From a virus, in IMG/VR virus record IMGVR_UViG_3300024520_000027, positions 1-37,777 of that record: DNA of 37,777 bases; one strand, written 5' to 3'. The notes beneath the pieces are model-generated. The model worked only from the letters and a program-made list of their open reading frames with translations, was not told the origin of the DNA and did not search any database. Within the stretch, counting starts at the first letter, position 1. Each line of letters opens with the position of its first letter. Shown here piece by piece: positions 3,382-35,561 of this stretch. Both the position numbers and the translations under genes were made by a program.

Positions 3382-6300
3382 TCTCTCGTCGTCGTCTGAC
3401 CTACGGTATATTGCAATAGGATGCGAGCGGTCTCTTCCTCTATCCACTTGCTTGCCGCGTCCTCACCTTGTGCTTTTTCTACGCGTGGAAACTGCGCACT
3501 GAGCGCGGCGATTGCAGATTCCATGGCTTGCGCGTCCTTCGCTTCATTCTTGTCTACCTCGTTGCGCGCGAAACCACCGAAGGCGGCCTTACTAAGCGCA
3601 TCCCAAATGCTCATCTCGTTGCCCCGGATGTCCTTGCCCATACCTTTGTCGTCCAGGCTACGCGCCACCGGAATCACCTTGTCCAAAAGATGATAGGCGA
3701 GCGCCGGAGAATACTGTTTGAGTAACCACATCGCGCGACCTTGATTCGGTGACACTATCGGCCTGCGCAGATGAGAATCGTAGTCTATGATCATCAACGG
3801 CACGGCGGAAATAGGCCCAGGCTTTGAGGTCCAGACGTCGCTGTATTTGTCCTTGCCAAACGAGCTGCCTTTTTCTAGAGAGAGGGTTTGCGACGGAACT
3901 GATGGCATAAACCGACGGAAGTCGTAATCGTAGTTCTCCGTGAGTGGACCAGAGCCGGCTGCGCGATACCGGGGTTGGTTCCTCATGCGCCTTTTTGTTT
4001 CTTCGTCGGCGACGTCATATCCCGCGTCTTCAGTCTTCATGGCCAGCGACATTTTAACCGGCTGCTTCGCAAACCGGTTGATCGTTTGACCTGTCTTCTT
4101 CCAGGCAAAGCGGGTGAACGGAAGAAAGCCGTAGGTGTCTAGCTTGTCCAGCAACAGTGGTGTGTCTCTGTAGTCAAAGTGATGCTCGAGCACATGCTCG
4201 TGCGCGATGCGGCGCAGCTCCGGGTCCGTAAGCGCCTTGTCCACGCTGATTTTGTATTGTTTCGCGCTTCGCCGAATACTTCTCTCGTAGAACTGGTGCA
4301 TTGAGGACTCATCACCGTGACGCCAAAGCTTCGTGGCGAACTTGGCCGGCCGATTCTCCGAATAGAGCCAGCGGGCAAAACCTGAAACCTTCGAAGCCCA
4401 GGCGCCATCGAAGCCACCGCCAGCCTTGACCAATTCAGAAGCCGTACGCCCGCCAGTATTCCCGACCTCTCTCAAGTCTGCGTGCTGAATTATGCCGTCT
4501 TCTTGCATCGCTTTATAGAACTTGTCCCCGCTTTTGCCCGACCCTCTGCCGACTCCAAAATGCCCCTTCAGCAAGGCCGACGGGCTCCCGTTGTCAAGGA
4601 TGTGCGCCAACGTGTTGTCTCCAAGCTGCATAAAGTGAGAGCTTGGGCCGAGAATGACCTTGGCCGACTTCCAGCCAAGAACACTTTCACGCAAGGCTGC
4701 GGCATAAACATCGCTTGTTTTCTGAAAGGCTCGGAGACGAACCCAGTCGTTGCGTTTTATGTAGCGGCCACCGAGAGCACCAAACTCGTCTACATCGAAT
4801 CCGGGTATGTTCTTCTTTTTTATCAACACGTAGCCTGGCGCCGGGGCGTCTAGAGTGTGAGGAAGTATGTCCTCATACAGCTTGAACTTCGCCGCGACAC
4901 TTCTCACGGCAGCCTGGCGGATCTGCATAGCCTTGTCTATTTCCAGGGCTCCGGCTTGCATACGCTCTTCGATGGTCGCGTGTTTTCTCAGGCTTGCCCT
5001 CATCCCCATACCCAGGTCAAAGCCCTTCGCCTTCGGCAGCATTGAGCTGAGGAACACCTGCTCATCGCTCATGGCCGCCACCTTGCCAAGCTCCCCGGAG
5101 ATGAGACCTTTCTTTCTCATTATTCTTTCGACCGCTTTGCGGTGCTTCTTTTTGAGCTTCCCCAAGCGAACGTCCGGAATGTAGTCGGGAGCATTCTGCC
5201 TAAACGTACTCATCTTCAGCAGCGATTGACCGTTGCCGAGGTTGACGTTCTGCATCTCGTCGGCGAGGTCGAGGAACAGCTTTCTTCCGTACTCCAGCTC
5301 TTTCCCTGCTTTTTGGATGAACTCGGGCGCATCAGGCGAGATGACGACTTTCACGTCCTTCGCTTTTGGGTGAAGAACGAACATGGCTTTGTGGCTCTCG
5401 ATGGGAAGTCCGTCGACCTCAAAGGTGACCATCTTCTTCCTCATCGACGCAGCCAAAAGCTGCGCCTTGTTGTCATTCTTGCCGAAGTATTCACTGCGCA
5501 AGGCATCCAGCGCTGCTGGCTCTTCCTTGGCCCGAGCCAAGAACTCGCGCGCTTCTTCCTCTGACATTTGCCGGCGAGTTTCTTCTTTGTGGGCCTTGTC
5601 TACCTTTTTCGCAGGAGGGCGAAAGCTGGACTTGGTGCCCATCGTGTCAACGTCATCGAGTATCGCGAGCGGCCCGTCCCCCAGTTCCTTTTCAGTAAAC
5701 TTCGACTTCAGATAAAGTTCGTTTTTATCCCACGCGCTTATATTCGGACCATCCTCTCCATACTTCAGCCTCGGGGCTCCTGGTATGGTGTCGTCGGTAG
5801 CGAGGGTGGAAGATGGCCCTTCTTGCTTCGACGGCAGCGGCTCGTCGACTTTGGACAATGCGGGGTCGACTTTTCTTGAGGCAAGCTCGGCCTTCCGAGA
5901 GACGCTGTAGGAACCTGTCGGTTCGCCTGCGGATGACTTAACCGGGCGCGGCGGTCTGTCGAAGTTTGTTCCTTTCGGAATCGGATCGTCTACGGCCTTG
6001 GCCATAGCTTCGGAGACGGGAGTTTTGGACGGGGACGAAACCTTAGAAGCTTTTGAGCCCGCCGCCGCAGCCCTCGACGCAGGCCGCACCCCCGAAGCAA
6101 TCAGCAGCTCAATCTCGGCCGCATCATTAATCAGCTCTGCTCGTATGTCCTCAGCGCCGTCGAGGGTGCGCGACTCAAGGTGTCTCGCGTATTCAATCTT
6201 CTGTTCTGGGGTGAAGTCCTTAAATATTTCTTCGACTTCCTTTTTTCCTCTAAAAATGTCGGCGTCGAGCTTCTGCCGGAACTTCTCCAGCTTGGTTCTC

Positions 6301-7331: not shown

Positions 7332-8386
7332 TGAGATGACCCCATATTCATGCGCTGGATGGCACGGGCCATAGCCTGCCTAGTGTCGAGGCTCGGATTC
7401 TTCTTCTTTTCTTCTTGGGCAAATTCCACGATTTCGGGAGGCAGATTGTCTAAATCTACCCTGAACTGCGCGGCCATAATCTCGAGAGGATCTTTTTCGC
7501 CTTCGCCCTCGCCTTCGCCCGTGGCGCCGCCGGGCTCTGGTGGCGGTGCGGTCGGAGGAGGCATCAGGCCGAGATCTTGATATCTCTTGACCTCTTCCGC
7601 GCGAAGACGTCTCAATTGATCGCGAGCCTCTACCGCGTCGGCAAGCCATTCTGTCCTGCTTTTTTTGGCCCCTTTTATAATGCCTGTCGGCTTTTCCTGA
7701 ATGCCTCGAGCCTTGTTCGTGGCCGTCCTGAGAGTCAACTCCCACTTTTTGGTGTCACGCTTGATCATCGCAAGTTCTGGGTCTTTCGACGTCTTGGAGC
7801 CCTCTCCCTCTTTCGCTCTCTTCTGCCTCGCCCGCGACTCCGCTCGTCGACGTGCAGCGCTGGCGAGGTCTGACTTGTGCTTGTCTGCTTTCTGCTTCGC
7901 CGTAACAGTTTCCGCTGCTCGGGCGCGTTTCAGCTCTGCAAGGTCCAGCGTTGCCTGGCGTTTAGCCATAGCTGTGGCTCGTGGTCCGTAGGCCTCCCTC
8001 GAATCATGCTCGGCCTCAACCCCTGCAAACTGCTCGCGCGTCGGAGGCCCAACCTCCGGCGCCGCATTCGGGCCGACGTTCGGGGTCATGCGCGAGCGCT
8101 GTTTCATGGCCTGCTCAAGCTCATACCTGTCCCCGGCCCGGTCATGCCTCTCGCCGGCACGAGATGCTTCGGCAATAGCTCGCTGCTGCTGAGCCTCTGC
8201 TCTGGCCTCTGCTTGCTCTTTCCACACGTTCTCTTTCTCTTGCTGAGCGCGTTTCTCCTGTAGTTGAGAAAGGTTCATGAGCAGACCGGAGATCTGCCCC
8301 ATGCCTTGCTGCGATTGCTGTTGGAACTGCTGCGCTCTACGGCGCCGCAGATCTTCTAGTGCCAAAAGAACTCTTGGATCGGTCAT
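7328..8386 (-). CDS. Highly charged coiled-coil-like protein (352 aa), candidate internal virion protein.
   Basis: ORF rich in E/R/K/Q/A (QQSQQ.., RAEAQQQRAIAEASRAGERHDRAGDRYELEQ). ATGA overlaps on both sides. Confidence 0.75.
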   Translation of the reverse strand: MTDPRVLLALEDLRRRRAQQFQQQSQQGMGQISGLLMNLSQLQEKRAQQEKENVWKEQAEARAEAQQQRAIAEASRAGERHDRAGDRYELEQAMKQRSRMTPNVGPNAAPEVGPPTREQFAGVEAEHDSREAYGPRATAMAKRQATLDLAELKRARAAETVTAKQKADKHKSDLASAARRRAESRARQKRAKEGEGSKTSKDPELAMIKRDTKKWELTLRTATNKARGIQEKPTGIIKGAKKSRTEWLADAVEARDQLRRLRAEEVKRYQDLGLMPPPTAPPPEPGGATGEGEGEGEKDPLEIMAAQFRVDLDNLPPEIVEFAQEEKKKNPSLDTRQAMARAIQRMNMGSSQ

Positions 8387-9441
8387 TTCTTCTTATACCT
8401 ACGCTCTCTCTCGGCCCTATTTCTGGCGGCCTGCTCGTTTCCAACCCAAGGATCTATCATCACCTCGTTAAACCCATCTTCGATGTCATGAAGAGAATCT
8501 CCGCTCACGTTATAATCCCAGATGCCCTTATCATGGTCATACCGACCAAGGTCGATACCGCCGTCATCAGCGGGATCTCCCGGATCAGAACCATCGCCGC
8601 TGCCGGGGATCTGGCTCTCTAGAAATGCATTCCAAAGCTTGTCATTCGAATCTGTTCGCCCCTCGTGCCAATCCTGAGCGCCCTGCAAACGATTCTCCGT
8701 CATGCCCTGCAAACCAAGACCGCCAGCAACGCGCACGCGATCAAGCTCCTCGCCGCGAGCGCCCGCATCAAGATCGAAACCGCCCTTGGCTATACTCTGG
8801 CCCATCCTTCGACGCATGTCGCCTTCGACGGCACCCATGGCGCCCGAGGCACCCATGCCGAGGCGCCCCATACGAGCGCGCTGGTTTCCGAGCTGCTGAT
8901 TGTATTGCTCCTCCATGATCTCACGCAGAAGAGCCTTCTCCTCTTCGGTGTCTCGCGGACCGCCGAGCATTTCCGTGATTCTTTTTTCTAGCTCCGTCTG
9001 AAAGTCACCAGTCTCGCCACCACCGACATCGCCACCGCCACCGCCAGCGCGCTCGTCACGAATGGCGTCAATATAGCTGCGAGCAGCGTCGTTCATCTGC
9101 GGAGGGCCTCGACCGTCGCGAATAGCGTCAACATGGCTGCGAGCAGCGTCGTTCATTTGAGGCGGGCCTGTCACGTCCTGCATCACCGTCGCCTGCACGC
9201 CTTGCGGCTGCACAACTTGTCCGTCATCCTGGTGCTGTGTGTATGGATTCGGCGGAGGCTGCTGTGGAGGCATCTGCTGCTGTGGTGGAAGCTGTCCTGC
9301 CCCCGCTTGCGGAGGCTGCGCAGGATTGAGAGCCATAGGCTCGGGAGACGGTGCTCCACCGTATGCACCGAACTGTCGAGGGCGTTGAGGACTCGCGGGA
9401 GTTCTCGGTGCCTGGGAAAATGATCGTTTTGTGTATGGCAT
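8383..9441 (-). CDS. Pro/Gln/Gly-rich protein (352 aa) with an internal 20-aa tandem repeat, candidate internal virion protein.
   Basis: AAGGAGA lies 5 nt upstream of ATG 9441. Contains GPPQMNDAARS[HY][VI]DAIRD twice, plus a PQ-rich N-terminus. Confidence 0.75.
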   Translation of the reverse strand: MPYTKRSFSQAPRTPASPQRPRQFGAYGGAPSPEPMALNPAQPPQAGAGQLPPQQQMPPQQPPPNPYTQHQDDGQVVQPQGVQATVMQDVTGPPQMNDAARSHVDAIRDGRGPPQMNDAARSYIDAIRDERAGGGGGDVGGGETGDFQTELEKRITEMLGGPRDTEEEKALLREIMEEQYNQQLGNQRARMGRLGMGASGAMGAVEGDMRRRMGQSIAKGGFDLDAGARGEELDRVRVAGGLGLQGMTENRLQGAQDWHEGRTDSNDKLWNAFLESQIPGSGDGSDPGDPADDGGIDLGRYDHDKGIWDYNVSGDSLHDIEDGFNEVMIDPWVGNEQAARNRAERERRYKKK

Positions 9442-24559: not shown

Positions 24560-24688
24560 TCATAACAGATACCTTCCGAGAGCGAACACCCCAAGACCCA
24601 AGGCGACCGTGGGCAAAATGAACCGAATTGCAAGAAAAAGGAGAGTAGTGCCAAGAATGACGATCGCAACAATGTCTTCTGCTTTCAT
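24560..24688 (-). CDS. Possible 42-aa double-hydrophobic-segment micro-protein.
   Basis: My own translation: MKAEDIVAIVILGTTLLFLAIRFILPTVALGLGVFALGRYLL*. ATGA overlap with the stop of 24685..25323. Third-position GC is lower than in neighbouring genes. Confidence 0.3.
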   Translation of the reverse strand: MKAEDIVAIVILGTTLLFLAIRFILPTVALGLGVFALGRYLL

Positions 24689-25323
24689 TTCGAAACCGCC
24701 TTCATAAGGTTGCGCTTATACGTTTCGTTAGCGTCTTCGAGGATGGCGCGCCTCTCAGTGGCGTCGATGCCGGGGTCCTCTTCGATATCACCCCTTTCCT
24801 TCAGGCGCTCAAACACCGCTTCTGTCTCTTTTATCTCGTCGATTCTGGATGTCTCTCCTTCGGCTTCAGTCTCTTCAGTCTCTTCAGTCTCTTCAGTCTC
24901 TTCTGTTTCTTCGATTCTGGATGTCTCTCCTTCGGCTTCAGGCCACCCCTTTCTAGCGTCTTCAGCATTCAACCACGCCATGATGATGTGGTTGCCCTTG
25001 ACGAGACTCAGCCTGTCTTCAGGGTTGTTGATGTCGACTCCGTCCGAAGCTGCGGAGATGTGCATCACGAGCATCCCAGGCTTCAAACCCTCTACGTCAT
25101 CCGCAACTGCTACTACCTCCTGAAACGGTGCGTCTCCGGGGTCATCATGCTGCTCTGGAAGGACGAGGCTCGACTCCCCTCCAATGATATCATAGTTCGT
25201 GATTGCTCGAAGCAACACACGACCGTTCATTGGCTTTCCCGTGCCGTTTTCAATGGCTTTCAGAATGACAGGCGAAACGCGCACGGTGCGTTCTGGCGAT
25301 AGATAATCCTTGAAACGGCTCAT
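24685..25323 (-). CDS. GroES/Cpn10-like N-terminal domain fused to an acidic ETE-repeat tail.
   Basis: NGRVLLRAI..IIGGESSLVLPEQ..FQEVVAVADDVEGLKPGMLVM..LSLVKGNHIIMAW resembles the GroES pattern. It is followed by EAEGETSRIEETEETEETEETEETEAEGETSRIDE. Confidence 0.45.
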   Translation of the reverse strand: MSRFKDYLSPERTVRVSPVILKAIENGTGKPMNGRVLLRAITNYDIIGGESSLVLPEQHDDPGDAPFQEVVAVADDVEGLKPGMLVMHISAASDGVDINNPEDRLSLVKGNHIIMAWLNAEDARKGWPEAEGETSRIEETEETEETEETEETEAEGETSRIDEIKETEAVFERLKERGDIEEDPGIDATERRAILEDANETYKRNLMKAVSK

Positions 25324-29156: not shown

Positions 29157-29261
29157 AGGTGCACGCACCTCCAGAACACTGGACCCGCCTAAATGTCGCC
29201 GCCCACCATTAGCAACGAAGTGGAGACATCCAAAACGGTCGGCGGACGACGACACCTCAAT

Positions 29262-29333
29262 CTACAGAATGTTTACAGAATGTACAGAATGTTTACAGAA
29301 TCTACAGAATGTTTACAGAATGCACAGAATGAT
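29262..29333. repeat. Iteron array: seven copies of [TC]ACAGAAT[GC].
   Basis: Copies start at 29263, 29274, 29283, 29294, 29303, 29314 and 29323. Spacing alternates 11 and 9 bp, giving about 3.5 copies of a 20-bp unit. The segment is locally AT-rich. Confidence 0.9.
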
Positions 29334-29342
29334 ACAAGCTAA

Positions 29343-29386: not shown

Positions 29387-29463
29387 TGGTGGACCGTGAA
29401 GGATTCGAACCTCCGACTTTACGCATATCAGACGCATACTCTGCCGGGCTGAGTTACCGGTCC
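29387..29463 (-). tRNA. tRNA-Ile (anticodon GAU), with CCA encoded.
   Basis: Hand-folded cloverleaf: GGACCGG-TA-ACTC-AGCCCGGCA-GAGT-A-TGCGT-CTGATAT-GCGTA-AAGTC-GGAGG-TTCGAAT-CCTTC-ACGGTCC-A-CCA. U33 and A37 flank GAU. There is one G.A mismatch at the base of the acceptor stem and two G.U pairs in the anticodon stem. Confidence 0.75.
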
Positions 29464-31224: not shown

Positions 31225-31363
31225 TGTCTGGCTCCAGCGCTCGCCATACGTAGTGCTGGGCCTGGGCTATCTGCTGGGCGTCGGCTGGGTTATGGGTTCG
31301 CTCATCGCGGAGACGCTGGCAAGAGGTAGGAAGGCCACTGCTAACCGCCGGAAACGGGGTTAA
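31217..31363 (+). CDS. Possible 48-aa membrane micro-protein (TTG start).
   Basis: My own translation: (M)VDVWLQRSPYVVLGLGYLLGVGWVMGSLIAETLARGRKATANRRKRG*. Its TAA sits in GTTAAC, sharing the TTAA with the stop of the convergent gene. Confidence 0.25.
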   Translation: MVDVWLQRSPYVVLGLGYLLGVGWVMGSLIAETLARGRKATANRRKRG

Positions 31364-31641
31364 CGCGTGGAATCGCCCCTCTCAAGGTAACCACAAGATT
31401 CAGAGCACGTCTCGAAAACACAGTTGAGATCGAGGTCATCAATGCGGCCCTCTTTGGTGAGGGCCTCAGTGCACACGTCTGCCGAGGTTACACACGCAGG
31501 ACCGAACCCGCTCAGCTCTTTGTGTTCCGCCAGACACTCGCAACACTGCCGATGATCGGCCTCGGTATAGCGTGGAGCGCATGATTCCATCGGTAAAACA
31601 ACGCATATAAGCGAACAAATCAAGGCCAAGTGTTGCAACAT
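31360..31641 (-). CDS. Small Cys-rich secreted protein; last gene of the early block.
   Basis: MLQHLALICSLICVVLPMESCA is an N-terminal hydrophobic leader. About ten Cys follow (QCCECL, ACVTSADVC, NCVFETCSESC). Confidence 0.6.
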   Translation of the reverse strand: MLQHLALICSLICVVLPMESCAPRYTEADHRQCCECLAEHKELSGFGPACVTSADVCTEALTKEGRIDDLDLNCVFETCSESCGYLERGDSTR

Positions 31642-31704: not shown

Positions 31705-32016
31705 TCACGATCGCCTCCGCGTGGTGGTGCTCACTGTGGCTATGCCATAGCCATAGCCATCGCCATCGCCATAGCCATAGCCATTGCCATCGCCATCGCC
31801 GTTGCCATCGCCATTGCCATCGCCATCACCATCGCCATAGCCACAGCCATTGCCTTCGCCATAGCCATAGCCATTGCCATAGCCATAGCCATAGCCATGG
31901 CCGTTGCCGTTGCCATAGCCGTTGCCATAGCCGTTGCCATCACCATCGCCACAGCCATTGCCGTAGCCATAGCCATTGCCATTGCCATAGCCGCTGCCAT
32001 TGCCGACCGCCCTCAC
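31705..32016 (-). CDS. (Gly-X)n repeat protein, copy 1 (103 aa; X mostly Tyr/Asn/Asp).
   Basis: GTG start inside TAGTGAGGGCGGTCGGCAATGGC, overlapping the upstream stop by 1 nt. GGAGG lies 8 nt upstream. Head MRAVGNG, uninterrupted G-X alternation, tail GIATVSTTTRRRS. Confidence 0.6.
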   Translation of the reverse strand: MRAVGNGSGYGNGNGYGYGNGCGDGDGNGYGNGYGNGNGHGYGYGYGNGYGYGEGNGCGYGDGDGDGNGDGNGDGDGNGYGYGDGDGYGYGIATVSTTTRRRS

Positions 32017-32309
32017 TATGTCCGCCTCCGTGTGGTGGTGCTCACTGTGGCAATGCCATCGCCATAGCCATCGCCACGGCCATAGCCATAGCCATTGCCA
32101 TCGCCATAGCCATCACCATTGCCACAGCCATTGCCATCACCATCGCCATTGCCACAGCCATTGCCATAGCCGTTGCCGTTGCCATTGCCGTAGCCGTTGC
32201 CATAGCCATTGCCATAGCCATAGCCATCACCATCGCCATAGCCATCACCATAGCCATCGCCATAACCATAGCCTTCGCCATTGCCATTGCCATTGCCGAC
32301 CGCCCTCAC
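32016..32309 (-). CDS. (Gly-X)n repeat protein, copy 2 (97 aa).
   Basis: Same start context (TAG/GTG 1-nt overlap with the 109-aa gene). Same head MRAVGNG and same tail GIATVSTTTRRRT. Confidence 0.6.
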   Translation of the reverse strand: MRAVGNGNGNGEGYGYGDGYGDGYGDGDGYGYGNGYGNGYGNGNGNGYGNGCGNGDGDGNGCGNGDGYGDGNGYGYGRGDGYGDGIATVSTTTRRRT

Positions 32310-34175: not shown

Positions 34176-35561
34176 CTAGAACACGTCGCGGGCATGAAAG
34201 CTCGCAGTCGGTGCGTGAAACCGCATGTCGACGGTGCCGGTTGCACCGTCTCTCTGCTTGACGAATATGATATTTACGAGGTCTTTCTCATCTTCAGGGC
34301 ACCCCTCGCGCAGGTAATACTCTGGCCTGTAGAGCATGGCGATGATGTCCGCGTCTTGCTCGATGGAGCCCGAGTCGCGAAGGTCGCTCATGATGGGGAT
34401 CGGTGGCTTGCGTAGCTCGACCGCCCTCGAGAGCTGGCTCAGCAGAATGATTGGCACGTTGAGTTCCTTTGCCAGGTTCTTGAACCCCTTCGTGATAGCG
34501 CCTACAGCATAGTTCATATTCGCAGCGTCGAGGCCGCCCATGATTTGAAGGTAGTCGACGATGATGCAGCGGTGCCCGTATCGTTCCACTTGTGCCCGTG
34601 CTCGCTGTGCGATGTCGGCGAACGTCAGCCCAGGCATGTCGCAGATCGTCAACGGTCTCTCCGATAGCTCGCCCGCAGCCCCGGCAAAGTCAACGTGCTG
34701 TTGGCCCGAGAGGTTGCCCGTGCGAATAGCGCCGAGAGGTATCCATGCGCGTTCGGCTATCATGCGATTCGCAAGCTGTTGCGCCTTCATCTCCAGGCTG
34801 AAGACGGTGCAGCCATAGCCTTGCTTCGTCATGTTGTTGGCCACGCCTGTGATAAGTGCGGATTTGCCCATCGACGGTCGTGCCGCAACGATGACAAGGT
34901 CGCCGCCTCGAAAGCCACCGTCGAGCTTTTGATCTACAGCCGCGAAGCCCGAAGGCACGATCGCTCCAGTCTCACCGAGCGTGGCCGATGCTGCGGCAAA
35001 CACAGACCGTGCTTCCTGCATATCCTCTGACCGCTGCCTCTCGATGGCGCGCAGACCGTCTGCCAAATCCTCATGAATGTGTGGAAGACCCTTGCCTTGC
35101 CATGTCGTGCGCAGAGCTATGGCTAGAACCTCCGCAAGTTCTCTTCGCTCCCACGCATCTCTGATCTCCCGAGCAAACACCGGCTGCGCTGCCACCGACA
35201 CGTCCCGATCCAGCTCTTCCTGGAAGCGTCTCTCTTCGAACTCGCCGTCAAAGGGCTGCCTGTCCTTCAGCCGCGAGAGAAGAGGGATGATGTGCACCGC
35301 CTCTCCCGTCGTGCGCATGTCCTGCAACTCCGCCCACGCCTGCGCCAGCATAGGGTCAACGAAGTGCTCGGCACGAAGGCCGACGCCATCAGCTTCATTG
35401 ATAGCGTCGACCCCCTCAGCCACAGCACACGCCACGGCATTCACCTCGGCCTCTCGATTTGCTGGTACGCCAAAACCGCTTTTCAGTTCGCGCAACCTTC
35501 TGTCGCTGGCCGACTCACGACCGGCTTGCAGTGCATCAACGAGAGCGCCGAGGTTCGCCAT
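34176..35561 (-). CDS. dnaB: Replicative DNA helicase, DnaB family.
   Basis: Walker A in DLVIVAARPSMGKSALITGVANN, plus FSLEMKAQQLANRMIA, IIVDYLQIM, ILLSQLSRAVE and SDLRDSGSIEQDADIIAMLYRPEYY. Confidence 0.95.
   Translation of the reverse strand: MANLGALVDALQAGRESASDRRLRELKSGFGVPANREAEVNAVACAVAEGVDAINEADGVGLRAEHFVDPMLAQAWAELQDMRTTGEAVHIIPLLSRLKDRQPFDGEFEERRFQEELDRDVSVAAQPVFAREIRDAWERRELAEVLAIALRTTWQGKGLPHIHEDLADGLRAIERQRSEDMQEARSVFAAASATLGETGAIVPSGFAAVDQKLDGGFRGGDLVIVAARPSMGKSALITGVANNMTKQGYGCTVFSLEMKAQQLANRMIAERAWIPLGAIRTGNLSGQQHVDFAGAAGELSERPLTICDMPGLTFADIAQRARAQVERYGHRCIIVDYLQIMGGLDAANMNYAVGAITKGFKNLAKELNVPIILLSQLSRAVELRKPPIPIMSDLRDSGSIEQDADIIAMLYRPEYYLREGCPEDEKDLVNIIFVKQRDGATGTVDMRFHAPTASFHARDVF

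Follow-up and report, generated by a model that had tools for sequence, protein, structure and literature searches.

Glycine-rich tails occur on several proteins of the Sm fold: SmD1, SmD3, SmB and LSm4 carry GR/RGG tails. Acinetobacter Hfq carries GGFGGQ repeats (PMC11617691), and the C-terminal domains of Hfq act in RNA release and DNA compaction (PMC5606850, PMC5499573). In Iodobacter phage phiPLPE a repeat at 46,046-46,255 has been listed as (KMGCCG)35 and proposed as a novel attachment (att) site (Comeau et al. 2012, PMC3391216). This proposal is the only literature trace of the gene family examined here, which was found in IMG/VR virus record IMGVR_UViG_3300024520_000027. The analysed stretch (the window) comprises 37,777 nucleotides (nt) of this record (positions 1 to 37,777). 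In it, two adjacent minus-strand genes built of Gly-X dipeptides, where X stands for the residue after each glycine, follow a gene for a predicted Sm-like protein.

The Sm-like gene and the Gly-X gene almost certainly form a conserved, protein-coding two-gene module that is widespread in phages. What is new about it is that a predicted Sm fold and a Gly-rich tail are split into separate genes, and that the tail, held in a strict dipeptide register and hypervariable, had previously not been read as protein. The two Gly-X genes had been noticed in an original prediction made from the sequence of the window. The Sm-like gene upstream, which was not recognised there, is the decisive context.

Two Gly-X genes behind a predicted Sm-like gene

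The region consists of two tandem paralogues of about 100 amino acids (aa) each, made almost wholly of Gly-X dipeptides (Table 1). Gly is every second residue in both arrays and the phase is never broken; the copies share the head (GTG)RAVGNG and the tail GIATVSTTTRRR[T/S]. The open reading frames (ORFs) and the dipeptide counts thus confirm what was originally predicted for the two genes. The X residues are N13, Y13, D10, C2, E1, R1 and I1 in the 97-aa copy and Y15, N13, D10, C2, S1, H1, E1 and I1 in the 103-aa copy. Across both copies Gly-Tyr-Gly occurs 28 times and Gly-Asn-Gly 26 times, Ala is absent as X, Ser is found once, and there are about 10 Asp per array (20 in both). The underlying hexanucleotide array (Tandem Repeats Finder: period 6, 92.5 copies, 75% matches, score 364) is the only period-6 array in the window and is not producible by chance. 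The sequence of the 97-aa copy recurs in an independent assembly (L011), and its head and tail are kept as protein in the relatives L012, L014 and L065-L069.

Table 1. Positions of the module's genes, repeat and internal junction in the window.
Feature	Position	Strand	Remarks
Sm-like beta-barrel protein gene (predicted), 109 aa	32309..32638	-	apparently a divergent DUF6948-superfamily member; first gene of the module
Gly-X gene, upstream copy, 97 aa	32016..32309	-	head (GTG)RAVGNG; 41 unbroken dipeptides; tail GIATVSTTTRRRT
Gly-X gene, downstream copy, 103 aa	31705..32016	-	same head; 44 unbroken dipeptides; tail GIATVSTTTRRRS
Coupling junction between the copies	31996..32029	-	GGAGG, 8-nt spacer, TAG/GTG overlap at 32016, head codons
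Hexanucleotide tandem repeat	31744..32297		GGC-NAT on the minus strand; underlies both arrays; tail/head junction is the sole interruption

The Gly-X genes appear to be translated by stop/start coupling behind the Sm-like gene. A 23-nt motif, TAGTGAGGGCGGTCGGCAATGGC, stands at both junctions (32311->32289 and 32018->31996), where the first base of the GTG start is at the same time the last base of the TAG before it (positions 32309 and 32016). This 1-nt overlap joins the 97-aa copy to the Sm-like gene and the 103-aa copy to the 97-aa copy. The RRR codons of the tail create a GGAGG at 32029->32025, 8 nt upstream of the second GTG. The motif, the overlap and this GGAGG are all as the original prediction described them. 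A promoter and terminator scan of the region detected nothing beyond shuffled expectation.

The 109-aa product of the upstream gene has no Pfam or PHROG match, and DUF6948 (PF22253) was unmatched even at E <= 10. When its conserved N-terminal helix, MNIDDLTLGQIKQL, was used as a query, nine IMG/VR loci were recovered, and in all nine a Gly-alternating ORF lies directly after the homologous gene. Seven of these nine homologues are Pfam DUF6948 proteins (L001-L006 and L009, E 1e-8 to 1e-28). A profile of the window's clade (27 sequences) was aligned with the DUF6948-bearing homologues in hhalign with 97.8% probability (E 1e-12, 78 columns), and one sequence, P0035, bridges the two and carries PF22253. 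The 109-aa protein appears, by remote homology and shared fold, to be a divergent relative of DUF6948 that falls below the Pfam gathering threshold. Its relatives number 35 close homologues and 269 cluster representatives. The first 14 residues, MNIDDLTLGQ(I/A)K(Q/E)L, are the best-conserved part of the Sm-like proteins, whose clades are otherwise only about 20-25% identical.

With the 27-sequence alignment, AlphaFold2 modelled the 109-aa protein at a predicted local distance difference test score (pLDDT) of 88.6 and a predicted TM-score (pTM) of 0.72. In the predicted fold an N-terminal helix leads into a sheet of five beta-strands with a strong bend. In Foldseek searches the best 50 PDB matches of the model were all Sm/LSm chains (E 1e-3 to 8e-3), with TM-scores, normalised by target length, of up to 0.73. 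The best viral matches, in BFVD, were DUF6948 (E 5e-5 to 7.5e-4) and 'Sm-like domain' proteins. The upstream gene is therefore confidently predicted to encode a small Sm-like beta-barrel protein, with Sm membership at the level of the fold only.

Spread of the module and its reading frame

Further loci were gathered from IMG/VR, from GTDB contigs of metagenome-assembled genomes (MAGs), from metagenome contigs with homologues 47-60% identical, and from isolated phages. A locus counted as a module when an Sm-like gene of the MNIDDLTL type had a Gly-X array ORF whose start was at its stop codon or close to it. A Gly-X ORF is present at the 3' end of the MNIDDLTL-type gene in 47 of the 51 loci. 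The four exceptions are a false positive with an unrelated fusion (L027), a degenerate array (L034), a short array below threshold (L043) and a locus with none (L022). Two tandem Gly-X genes are found in the window and in L012, and a single one in L014, L065, L068 and L069. In about 313 kb of non-redundant sequence only one array, (GR)23 in L014, was detected away from the module position. It lies at 5044-5553, in frame directly upstream of an Endonuclease_7 (PF02945) gene, on a contig that also has a Gly-Tyr-type module.

Among isolated phages the module is present in Iodobacter phage phiPLPE, eight Ymer-genus Pectobacterium/Dickeya phages, Ralstonia phage NK-7 and Vibrio phage IKEMa6-1. In GenBank their Gly-X ORF is unannotated (phiPLPE), a 'hypothetical protein' (Ymer genus) or a 'fibroin heavy chain-like protein' (NK-7). 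Literature searches returned no description of Gly-X proteins, fibroin-like phage proteins, phage dipeptide or hexanucleotide repeats, or DUF6948, and the paper on the Ymer genus does not mention the Gly-X gene. The suggestion that no phage family with this architecture had been described holds for the literature searched, but the architecture is not unique to the window and is widespread in GenBank phages.

In GenBank phages neither DNA nor protein queries made from the window gave a match near the locus, an exact-pattern scan of IMG/VR for the tail-coding DNA gave no match, and Rfam detected no RNA family in the region. The matches of the Gly-X proteins in Pfam, PHROGs, NCBIfam and PADLOC were all below the cutoffs and driven by composition; those to a TrAA12 linker, a serine-rich protein and an SD-repeat adhesin were dismissed as artefacts. 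The identical 109-aa protein is present on ENA metagenome contigs, two of which end within the array. In L011 (3346-3597) and L010 (3346-3742), which correspond to window positions 32042-32293, the public calls take the Ala-Met frame as an 83-aa ORF, and the array of L010 is garbled at the contig end. Because gene callers pick the Ala-Met frame or none and assemblies break within the array, the family is mis-framed, under-represented in protein databases and largely hidden from them.

In the 46 loci that were scored, the Gly-X ORF has its own start codon (ATG 41, GTG 4, TTG 1). In 45 of them the distance of this start from the Sm-like stop is between -46 and +28 nt, and mostly the two overlap. 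The remaining locus is the window, for which the gene scored was the downstream copy (+293); its upstream copy begins on the Sm-like stop. Relative to the Sm-like gene, 28 loci have the Gly-X gene in frame +1, 12 in +2 and 6 in 0. Since the relative frame varies and each ORF has its own start codon, the Gly-X gene is initiated separately by coupling and not by frameshifting. A programmed frameshift or readthrough that would join the Sm-like domain to the array was ruled out on these grounds.

The window by itself says little about which frame is used. The repeat is open in five of six frames, and Ala-Met, Trp-Leu/Gln/Arg, Ala-Ile and His-Ser/Cys ORFs overlie the same bases in the ORF list of the window. 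ORF length is therefore uninformative, and it took a comparison with other loci to decide which frame is coding. The Y/N/D variation of the window arrays is synonymous in the Ala-Met frame. Across loci the hexamer unit changes (GGC-NAT, GGC-NAC, GGG-NAT, GGT-TCC, GGT-CGN) and its Gly-X translation is constant. Gly codons are locus-specific (GGC 1158, GGT 237, GGG 208, GGA 40), the last base of the X codons is T in some loci and C in others, and (GR)n arrays use CGT, CGG, CGC and CGA mixed. The +1 frame yields Ala-Met in the window, Ala-Thr in L012 and L014, Ala-Leu in L002 and Val-Thr in L006, with Gly-Met/Leu also found. It differs by locus because the Gly and X codons differ, and only the Gly-X frame is constant. 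The Ala-Met (+1) frame was ruled out as a real gene, its product not being conserved between loci. The comparison agrees with the frame and the coupling to the 109-aa gene that were first proposed.

The choice of X is also restricted. Over 1643 positions X is Y in 488, S in 469, D in 337, N in 101, R in 88, A in 49, F in 42, G in 16, H in 15, E in 14, C in 11 and T in 7. L, P and I are found twice each, and V, K, Q, M and W never. The codons GTY (Val) and ATY (Ile) are each one mutation from the abundant GAY and AAY codons, yet they are nearly absent.

The ends of the Gly-X proteins are kept within clades. In the window's clade, at GC contents of 0.44-0.62, the heads read M-R-[AP]-[VI]-G-N-G (MRAVGNG, MRPVGNG, MRPIGNG) or NRPVGSG, and the tails G-T-V-x3-5-RRR[RS], for example G-T/I-x-TVS...RRRS, GTVTSNLRRRRS, GYGTVSGGRRRRAA and GNVRLSRRRRT. 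The clade consensus is a head [RK]-P/A-V-G and a tail TV...RRRR. Paired by locus, head and tail are RAVGNG...TVSTTTRRR[S/T] in the window, MRPVGNG...TVTSNLRRRRS in L065, NRPVGSG...TVSGGRRRRAA in L012 and IPVGHG...VRLSRRRRT in L014. Heads of the DUF6948 clade read M-[SP]-x-L-x-K. In the eight Pectobacterium/Dickeya phages the head is MSKLIKPEKY (MSKLIKPERY in Setonix), the tail is a GEG directly before the stop codon (GDG in Taid), and the same hairpin lies downstream.

Between these kept ends the arrays evolve fast, by gain or loss of 6-nt units through slippage. The Gly-X ORFs of the eight phages measure 162, 204, 222, 222, 222, 252, 258 and 270 nt, with all differences multiples of 6, and the order of X is thoroughly reshuffled among them. 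Within one phage population, different samples contain 19 dipeptides (L065) or 30 (L066/67), a difference of 66 nt, and the arrays of L042 and L043 are 20 residues apart. The 6-nt length polymorphism that had been put forward for comparison is thus borne out in the eight phages and in L065 versus L066, with L069 (see below) as the sole exception. The start codons, the unconserved DNA unit, the kept heads and tails, the constraint on X and the in-register lengths together argue for a function at the protein level in the Gly-X frame. Selection maintains Gly at alternate positions, restricts X to polar residues, aromatic residues or Arg, and preserves the brief peptides at both ends. By the same comparison a purely DNA-level role is essentially excluded.

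Possible roles of the Gly-X protein

Single-sequence AlphaFold2 prediction of the 103-aa copy gave a pLDDT of 36.4 and no secondary structure; the Gly-X protein is probably intrinsically disordered. Its composition is of the prion-like/FUS type (rich in G, Y and N, few aliphatics, pLDDT 36), with Asp above that of FUS-type domains, and would suit the prion-like or condensate-forming role put forward in the original prediction. The net charge of the arrays is -6/-7 in the window, reaches -15 in other Y/S/D arrays and +36 in (GR)n. The X class of the array tracks the Sm-like clade. The clade of the window (DRGWIFAGD) has Y/N/D arrays with an RRRR tail. In the RTVTM clade (GR)n is found in five of eight loci, and the others have (GA)n, a degenerate array or none. 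The RTYSAGV clade (DUF6948 proper) has Y/S/D arrays, sometimes with F, H or A.

Fusions were detected as well. In P0121/L070 the N-terminal half of DUF6948 is followed by an in-frame Gly-X array, and in P0206 an SPVGNG-headed array lies in frame upstream of an Sm-like domain of the window's clade. Similar GY/GN/GD arrays are fused to other small domains, namely DUF7666 (P0039, P0043, P0045, P0059), DUF6745 (P0108) and a TIGR02996-type domain (P0129, P0139). The non-Sm fusions are metagenome proteins, some of them from Lachnospiraceae MAGs. The DUF7666 array proteins have a common short tail, IQ+IL.F, and P0036, in which the array is also fused to another small domain, ends in the window-like tail SVRSNKRRRPN.

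A functional or physical partnership between the Gly-X protein and the Sm-like protein is rather probable. The best explanation, held tentatively and with somewhat less than even confidence, is that the Gly-X protein serves as a low-complexity multivalent partner (a "tail in trans") of the Sm-like protein early in infection. It is suggested because Sm cores are recurrently paired with Gly-rich tails. The Gly-X protein would correspond to the Gly-rich tail of Sm/LSm/Hfq proteins, encoded by a separate gene. The role of 'stickers' would fall to Tyr/Phe or Arg, with Gly and Asn/Ser/Asp as the spacers between them, and the window's clade would add a C-terminal RRRR patch. The pair may form a higher-order assembly (condensate, gel or coat), possibly with nucleic acid, and would do so early in infection alongside the neighbouring replication and recombination genes. 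Such an assembly is reasonable because the residues that are kept are of the sticker types (Tyr/Phe and Arg, both present in the window's clade) and are spaced by Gly and polar residues. As a mechanism, multivalent assembly or condensate formation is possible, if doubtful.

Several results weigh against this explanation. Just two Sm-like/Gly-X fusions were found, and either may be a gene-calling artefact. Arrays are also fused to unrelated domains, and therefore the array may be a generic spacer for which no Sm-like partner is needed. The co-variation of clade and X class could reflect shared ancestry and not co-adaptation, and charge complementarity between the Sm-like and Gly-X proteins is weak (Spearman -0.24, p 0.08). 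A low pLDDT from single-sequence prediction is a weak sign of disorder. On the Sm-like side, the 109-aa protein matched neither the LSM nor the Hfq models of Pfam, NCBIfam and PHROG, and its PDB matches in Foldseek have best E-values of no more than about 1e-3 in significance. The Sm-like proteins carry net charges between -6 (the value in the window) and +2; such a neutral to acidic character is atypical for RNA-binding Sm/Hfq. Finally, the array of L069 has a 1-nt deletion at 2938-2950 (GGCACGGC instead of GGCNACGGC); its head and tail are intact, each in its own frame, and the deletion is either an assembly error or the mark of a recent pseudogene.

Other explanations fit some of the same data. 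The Gly-X protein may be an independent effector of host takeover or counter-defence that blocks or decoys a host component, with the Sm-like gene as a co-transcribed neighbour or chaperone. In variants of this explanation, poly-GR-like arrays would bind ribosomes or nucleic acids, and acidic Gly-Asp/Tyr arrays would imitate nucleic acid or sequester a defence protein. The position of the module among small early accessory genes beside recombination and replication functions, its moron-like, self-contained form in the Ymer-genus phages and the switching of X class between acidic/aromatic and pure Arg all suit an effector. So does the hypervariability of arrays between near-identical phages, as predicted by an arms race, but replication slippage alone also predicts it for a hexanucleotide repeat. 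No single target suits both the strongly acidic and the strongly basic versions, and joint action is favoured by the close linkage to the Sm-like gene and the fusions with it. No match to PADLOC or characterised families was found either, a weak point since PADLOC covers defence and not anti-defence. Overall, an effector of this kind is unlikely. The improbable view that the array is an inert flexible spacer or tether (an 'entropic bristle'), comparable to the Ser-Asp stalk of staphylococcal Clf/Sdr adhesins and drifting freely in length and sequence between a functional head and tail, is consistent with the heads and tails being kept while the arrays are scrambled over 9 to 64 dipeptides. It is also in line with the use of arrays as linkers on unrelated domains and with weak, composition-driven NCBIfam matches of P0139 to SD-repeat adhesins below the cutoff. 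However, X is not free: aliphatics are excluded and Tyr/Phe or Arg are always abundant, which points to selection on the array itself. Many members of the DUF6948 clade are almost tail-less, ending in GEG, GSG or GYG directly before the stop codon, and the window has two full tandem copies.

Structural and DNA-level alternatives fare less well. In a silk-like or amyloid fibre the Gly-X alternation would produce two-faced beta-sheets that stack into intracellular fibrils. The alternation is as strict as in fibroin (GA)n/(GAGAGS)n, the relative L039 encodes GAGAGAGAGS-type repeats, the NK-7 copy was annotated automatically as 'fibroin heavy chain-like', and Tyr/Asn-rich sequences are amyloid-prone. 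Against this, the fibroin motif (GAGAGS)n/(GA)n is absent from the window arrays, in which X is Y/N/D with no Ala and almost no Ser, and the charge densities (-6/-7 in the window, to -15 elsewhere, to +36 in (GR)n) disfavour stacked sheets. With no strands in the AlphaFold2 model (pLDDT 36), the silk-like beta-sheet of the original prediction is unsupported for the monomer, and a fibre is quite improbable. The loose comparison of the original prediction with calcium-binding beta-rolls of the RTX type fails in the window arrays. The Gly-x-Gly-x-Asp runs resemble GGxGxD, but the arrays contain no GGxGxD, no Gly-Gly pair and no hydrophobic nonapeptide position as in GGxGxDxUx. No RTX Pfam match, secretion signal or predicted strand was found, the (GR)n and (GA)n relatives are without any Asp, and such a beta-roll is hardly conceivable. 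The hexanucleotide repeat could also act as DNA, as an att site, an origin, a recombination hotspot or a protein-binding array, with the ORFs incidental. An att site is what Comeau et al. (2012, PMC3391216) propose for phiPLPE. With five of six frames open, some ORF would be present in any case, and the GGG Gly codons of some loci give (G3N3)n, which might form G-quadruplexes. A DNA element is nonetheless very unlikely: the repeat unit differs between loci and the encoded Gly-X pattern alone is conserved, the Gly-X ORF starts at or near the Sm-like stop, and the head and tail peptides are kept across GC 0.44-0.62. Aliphatic codons are also depleted, length changes stay in frame, and the Arg codons of (GR)n vary synonymously.

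A wider and more speculative extension of the tail-in-trans explanation, on balance unlikely, is that tailed phages from numerous lineages have an unrecognised class of dedicated hypervariable dipeptide-repeat proteins, each with a cognate Sm-like protein, that form a condensate, gel or multivalent trap within the bacterium during infection. Such a class would include Gly-Tyr/Ser/Asp/Asn, Gly-Phe and Gly-Arg arrays and would be a natural, selected counterpart of the C9orf72 repeats and of FG/FUS domains. Slippage during replication would adjust how long the arrays are and how many stickers they contain, possibly as part of an arms race between phage and host. If true, this would offer a simple, genetically tractable low-complexity system in phages, a pure dipeptide repeat of about 100 aa with a small folded partner. 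The grammar of stickers and spacers, selection on repeat length, and bacterial condensates would then be directly testable in a virus-host pair. Culturable phages already contain a natural allelic series, of 53-89 aa in the Ymer-genus Pectobacterium phages.

Genomic surroundings and comparison with known systems

The window is a contig of a tailed phage, with genes for the large terminase, the portal protein and a DnaB helicase (34176-35561, minus strand). No GenBank phage is similar to it at the DNA level. On the ENA contig of identical sequence there is also an SSB gene, just upstream. The repeat genes close a run of small minus-strand genes downstream of DnaB. Among all modules, the recognisable genes within two ORFs are mostly YqaJ, PDDEXK, DUF3799, RecT, ERF, Sak, SSB, YbcO, DnaB and Cro/HTH. 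The neighbours are thus mainly early recombination and replication genes and regulators. The Ymer-genus phages (L057-L063, L018) differ from the window, where the module stands with the replication genes. Their pair lies on the opposite strand between tail-fibre and membrane/tail genes in a moron-like layout; a promoter-like site precedes the pair by about 40 nt, and a hairpin is common to the pair and the convergent gene.

Downstream of the Gly-X genes, after a gap of 63 nt, comes a Cys-rich ORF of 93 aa with a hydrophobic N-terminus (31360-31641, minus strand). Pfam, PHROG, NCBIfam and PADLOC gave no match for this ORF, and no homologue of it was found beside any related module. The original prediction counted this ORF as the last gene of a coupled operon; the 109-aa gene and the two Gly-X copies remain of that operon, and the Cys-rich ORF, for which no conservation was found, was ruled out as a member and is a mere neighbour. 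Elsewhere in the window, a tRNA-Ile(GAT) gene (29387-29463, minus strand) adjoins an intergenic 20-nt tandem repeat, AATCTACAGAATGTTTACAG x3.7 (29259-29336), which could be an operator, an origin or an att-related element. A 60-nt tandem duplication (x1.9, 9054-9169) lies within ORF 8383-9441(-), and a 9-nt repeat, CTTCAGTCT x5.4 (24864-24912), within ORF 24685-25323(-).

Among known repetitive proteins, the heavy chain of Bombyx mori fibroin, (GAGAGS/GAGAGY)n, also has alternate Gly over long runs, with some Gly-Tyr. The phage X is Tyr/Asn/Asp (or Ser, Arg) instead of Ala/Ser, and the phage proteins are about 100 aa long, cytoplasmic, charged and predicted to be disordered; the two have periodicity in common and no homology. 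Prion-like/FUS domains and FG-nucleoporins are closer in composition. Like the phage arrays they are rich in G/Y/N/S with dense [G]Y[G] (GF in L004, L035 and L050), aliphatics are nearly absent, disorder is predicted, and Tyr/Arg are known 'stickers'. The phage arrays differ in their strict period of 2, far more Asp and their existence as a tiny stand-alone protein.

Dipeptide repeats encoded by short DNA repeats are known from two other systems. In C9orf72 a hexanucleotide repeat, open in several frames, gives rise to the dipeptide-repeat proteins poly-GA, poly-GR and poly-GP, and poly-GR and poly-GA-like versions exist in phages. The C9orf72 repeats are products of pathological non-AUG translation of an intronic expansion, whereas the phage arrays lie in dedicated ORFs with ATG/GTG starts, ribosome-binding sites, conserved ends and purifying selection. 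The Ser-Asp repeats of staphylococcal Clf/Sdr proteins are likewise a bacterial dipeptide repeat from short DNA repeats with in-frame length variation between strains. They form a stalk within large secreted wall-anchored proteins, whereas the phage repeat is almost the whole of a cytoplasmic protein.

The phiPLPE repeat is itself a member of the module. The gene immediately 5' of it, gp84, encodes a DUF6948 protein that shares 52.7% identity with the L001 homologue, and in the Gly-X frame the repeat encodes ...NGDGSGYGDGYGYGDG...GSGSG directly before the stop codon. It differs from the window in that X is Y/S/D, that there is a single copy and that the RRRR tail is lacking; it was described only as a GC-rich DNA repeat and possible att site with no coding sequence annotated (PMC3391216). 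The Sm/LSm/Hfq proteins with Gly-rich tails differ from the phage module in several respects. The phage tail is a separate coupled gene (duplicated in the window), with a strict dipeptide register and hypervariable length. The phage Sm-like protein is neutral or acidic, has no Pfam LSM/Hfq match and is known from its predicted fold. In both, a small Sm fold, predicted in the phages, goes together with a Gly-rich, disordered, repetitive segment, and in P0121 and P0206 the two parts are naturally fused. In one phage clade the partner of the Sm-like gene is a pure (GR)n, similar to the tail of SmD1.

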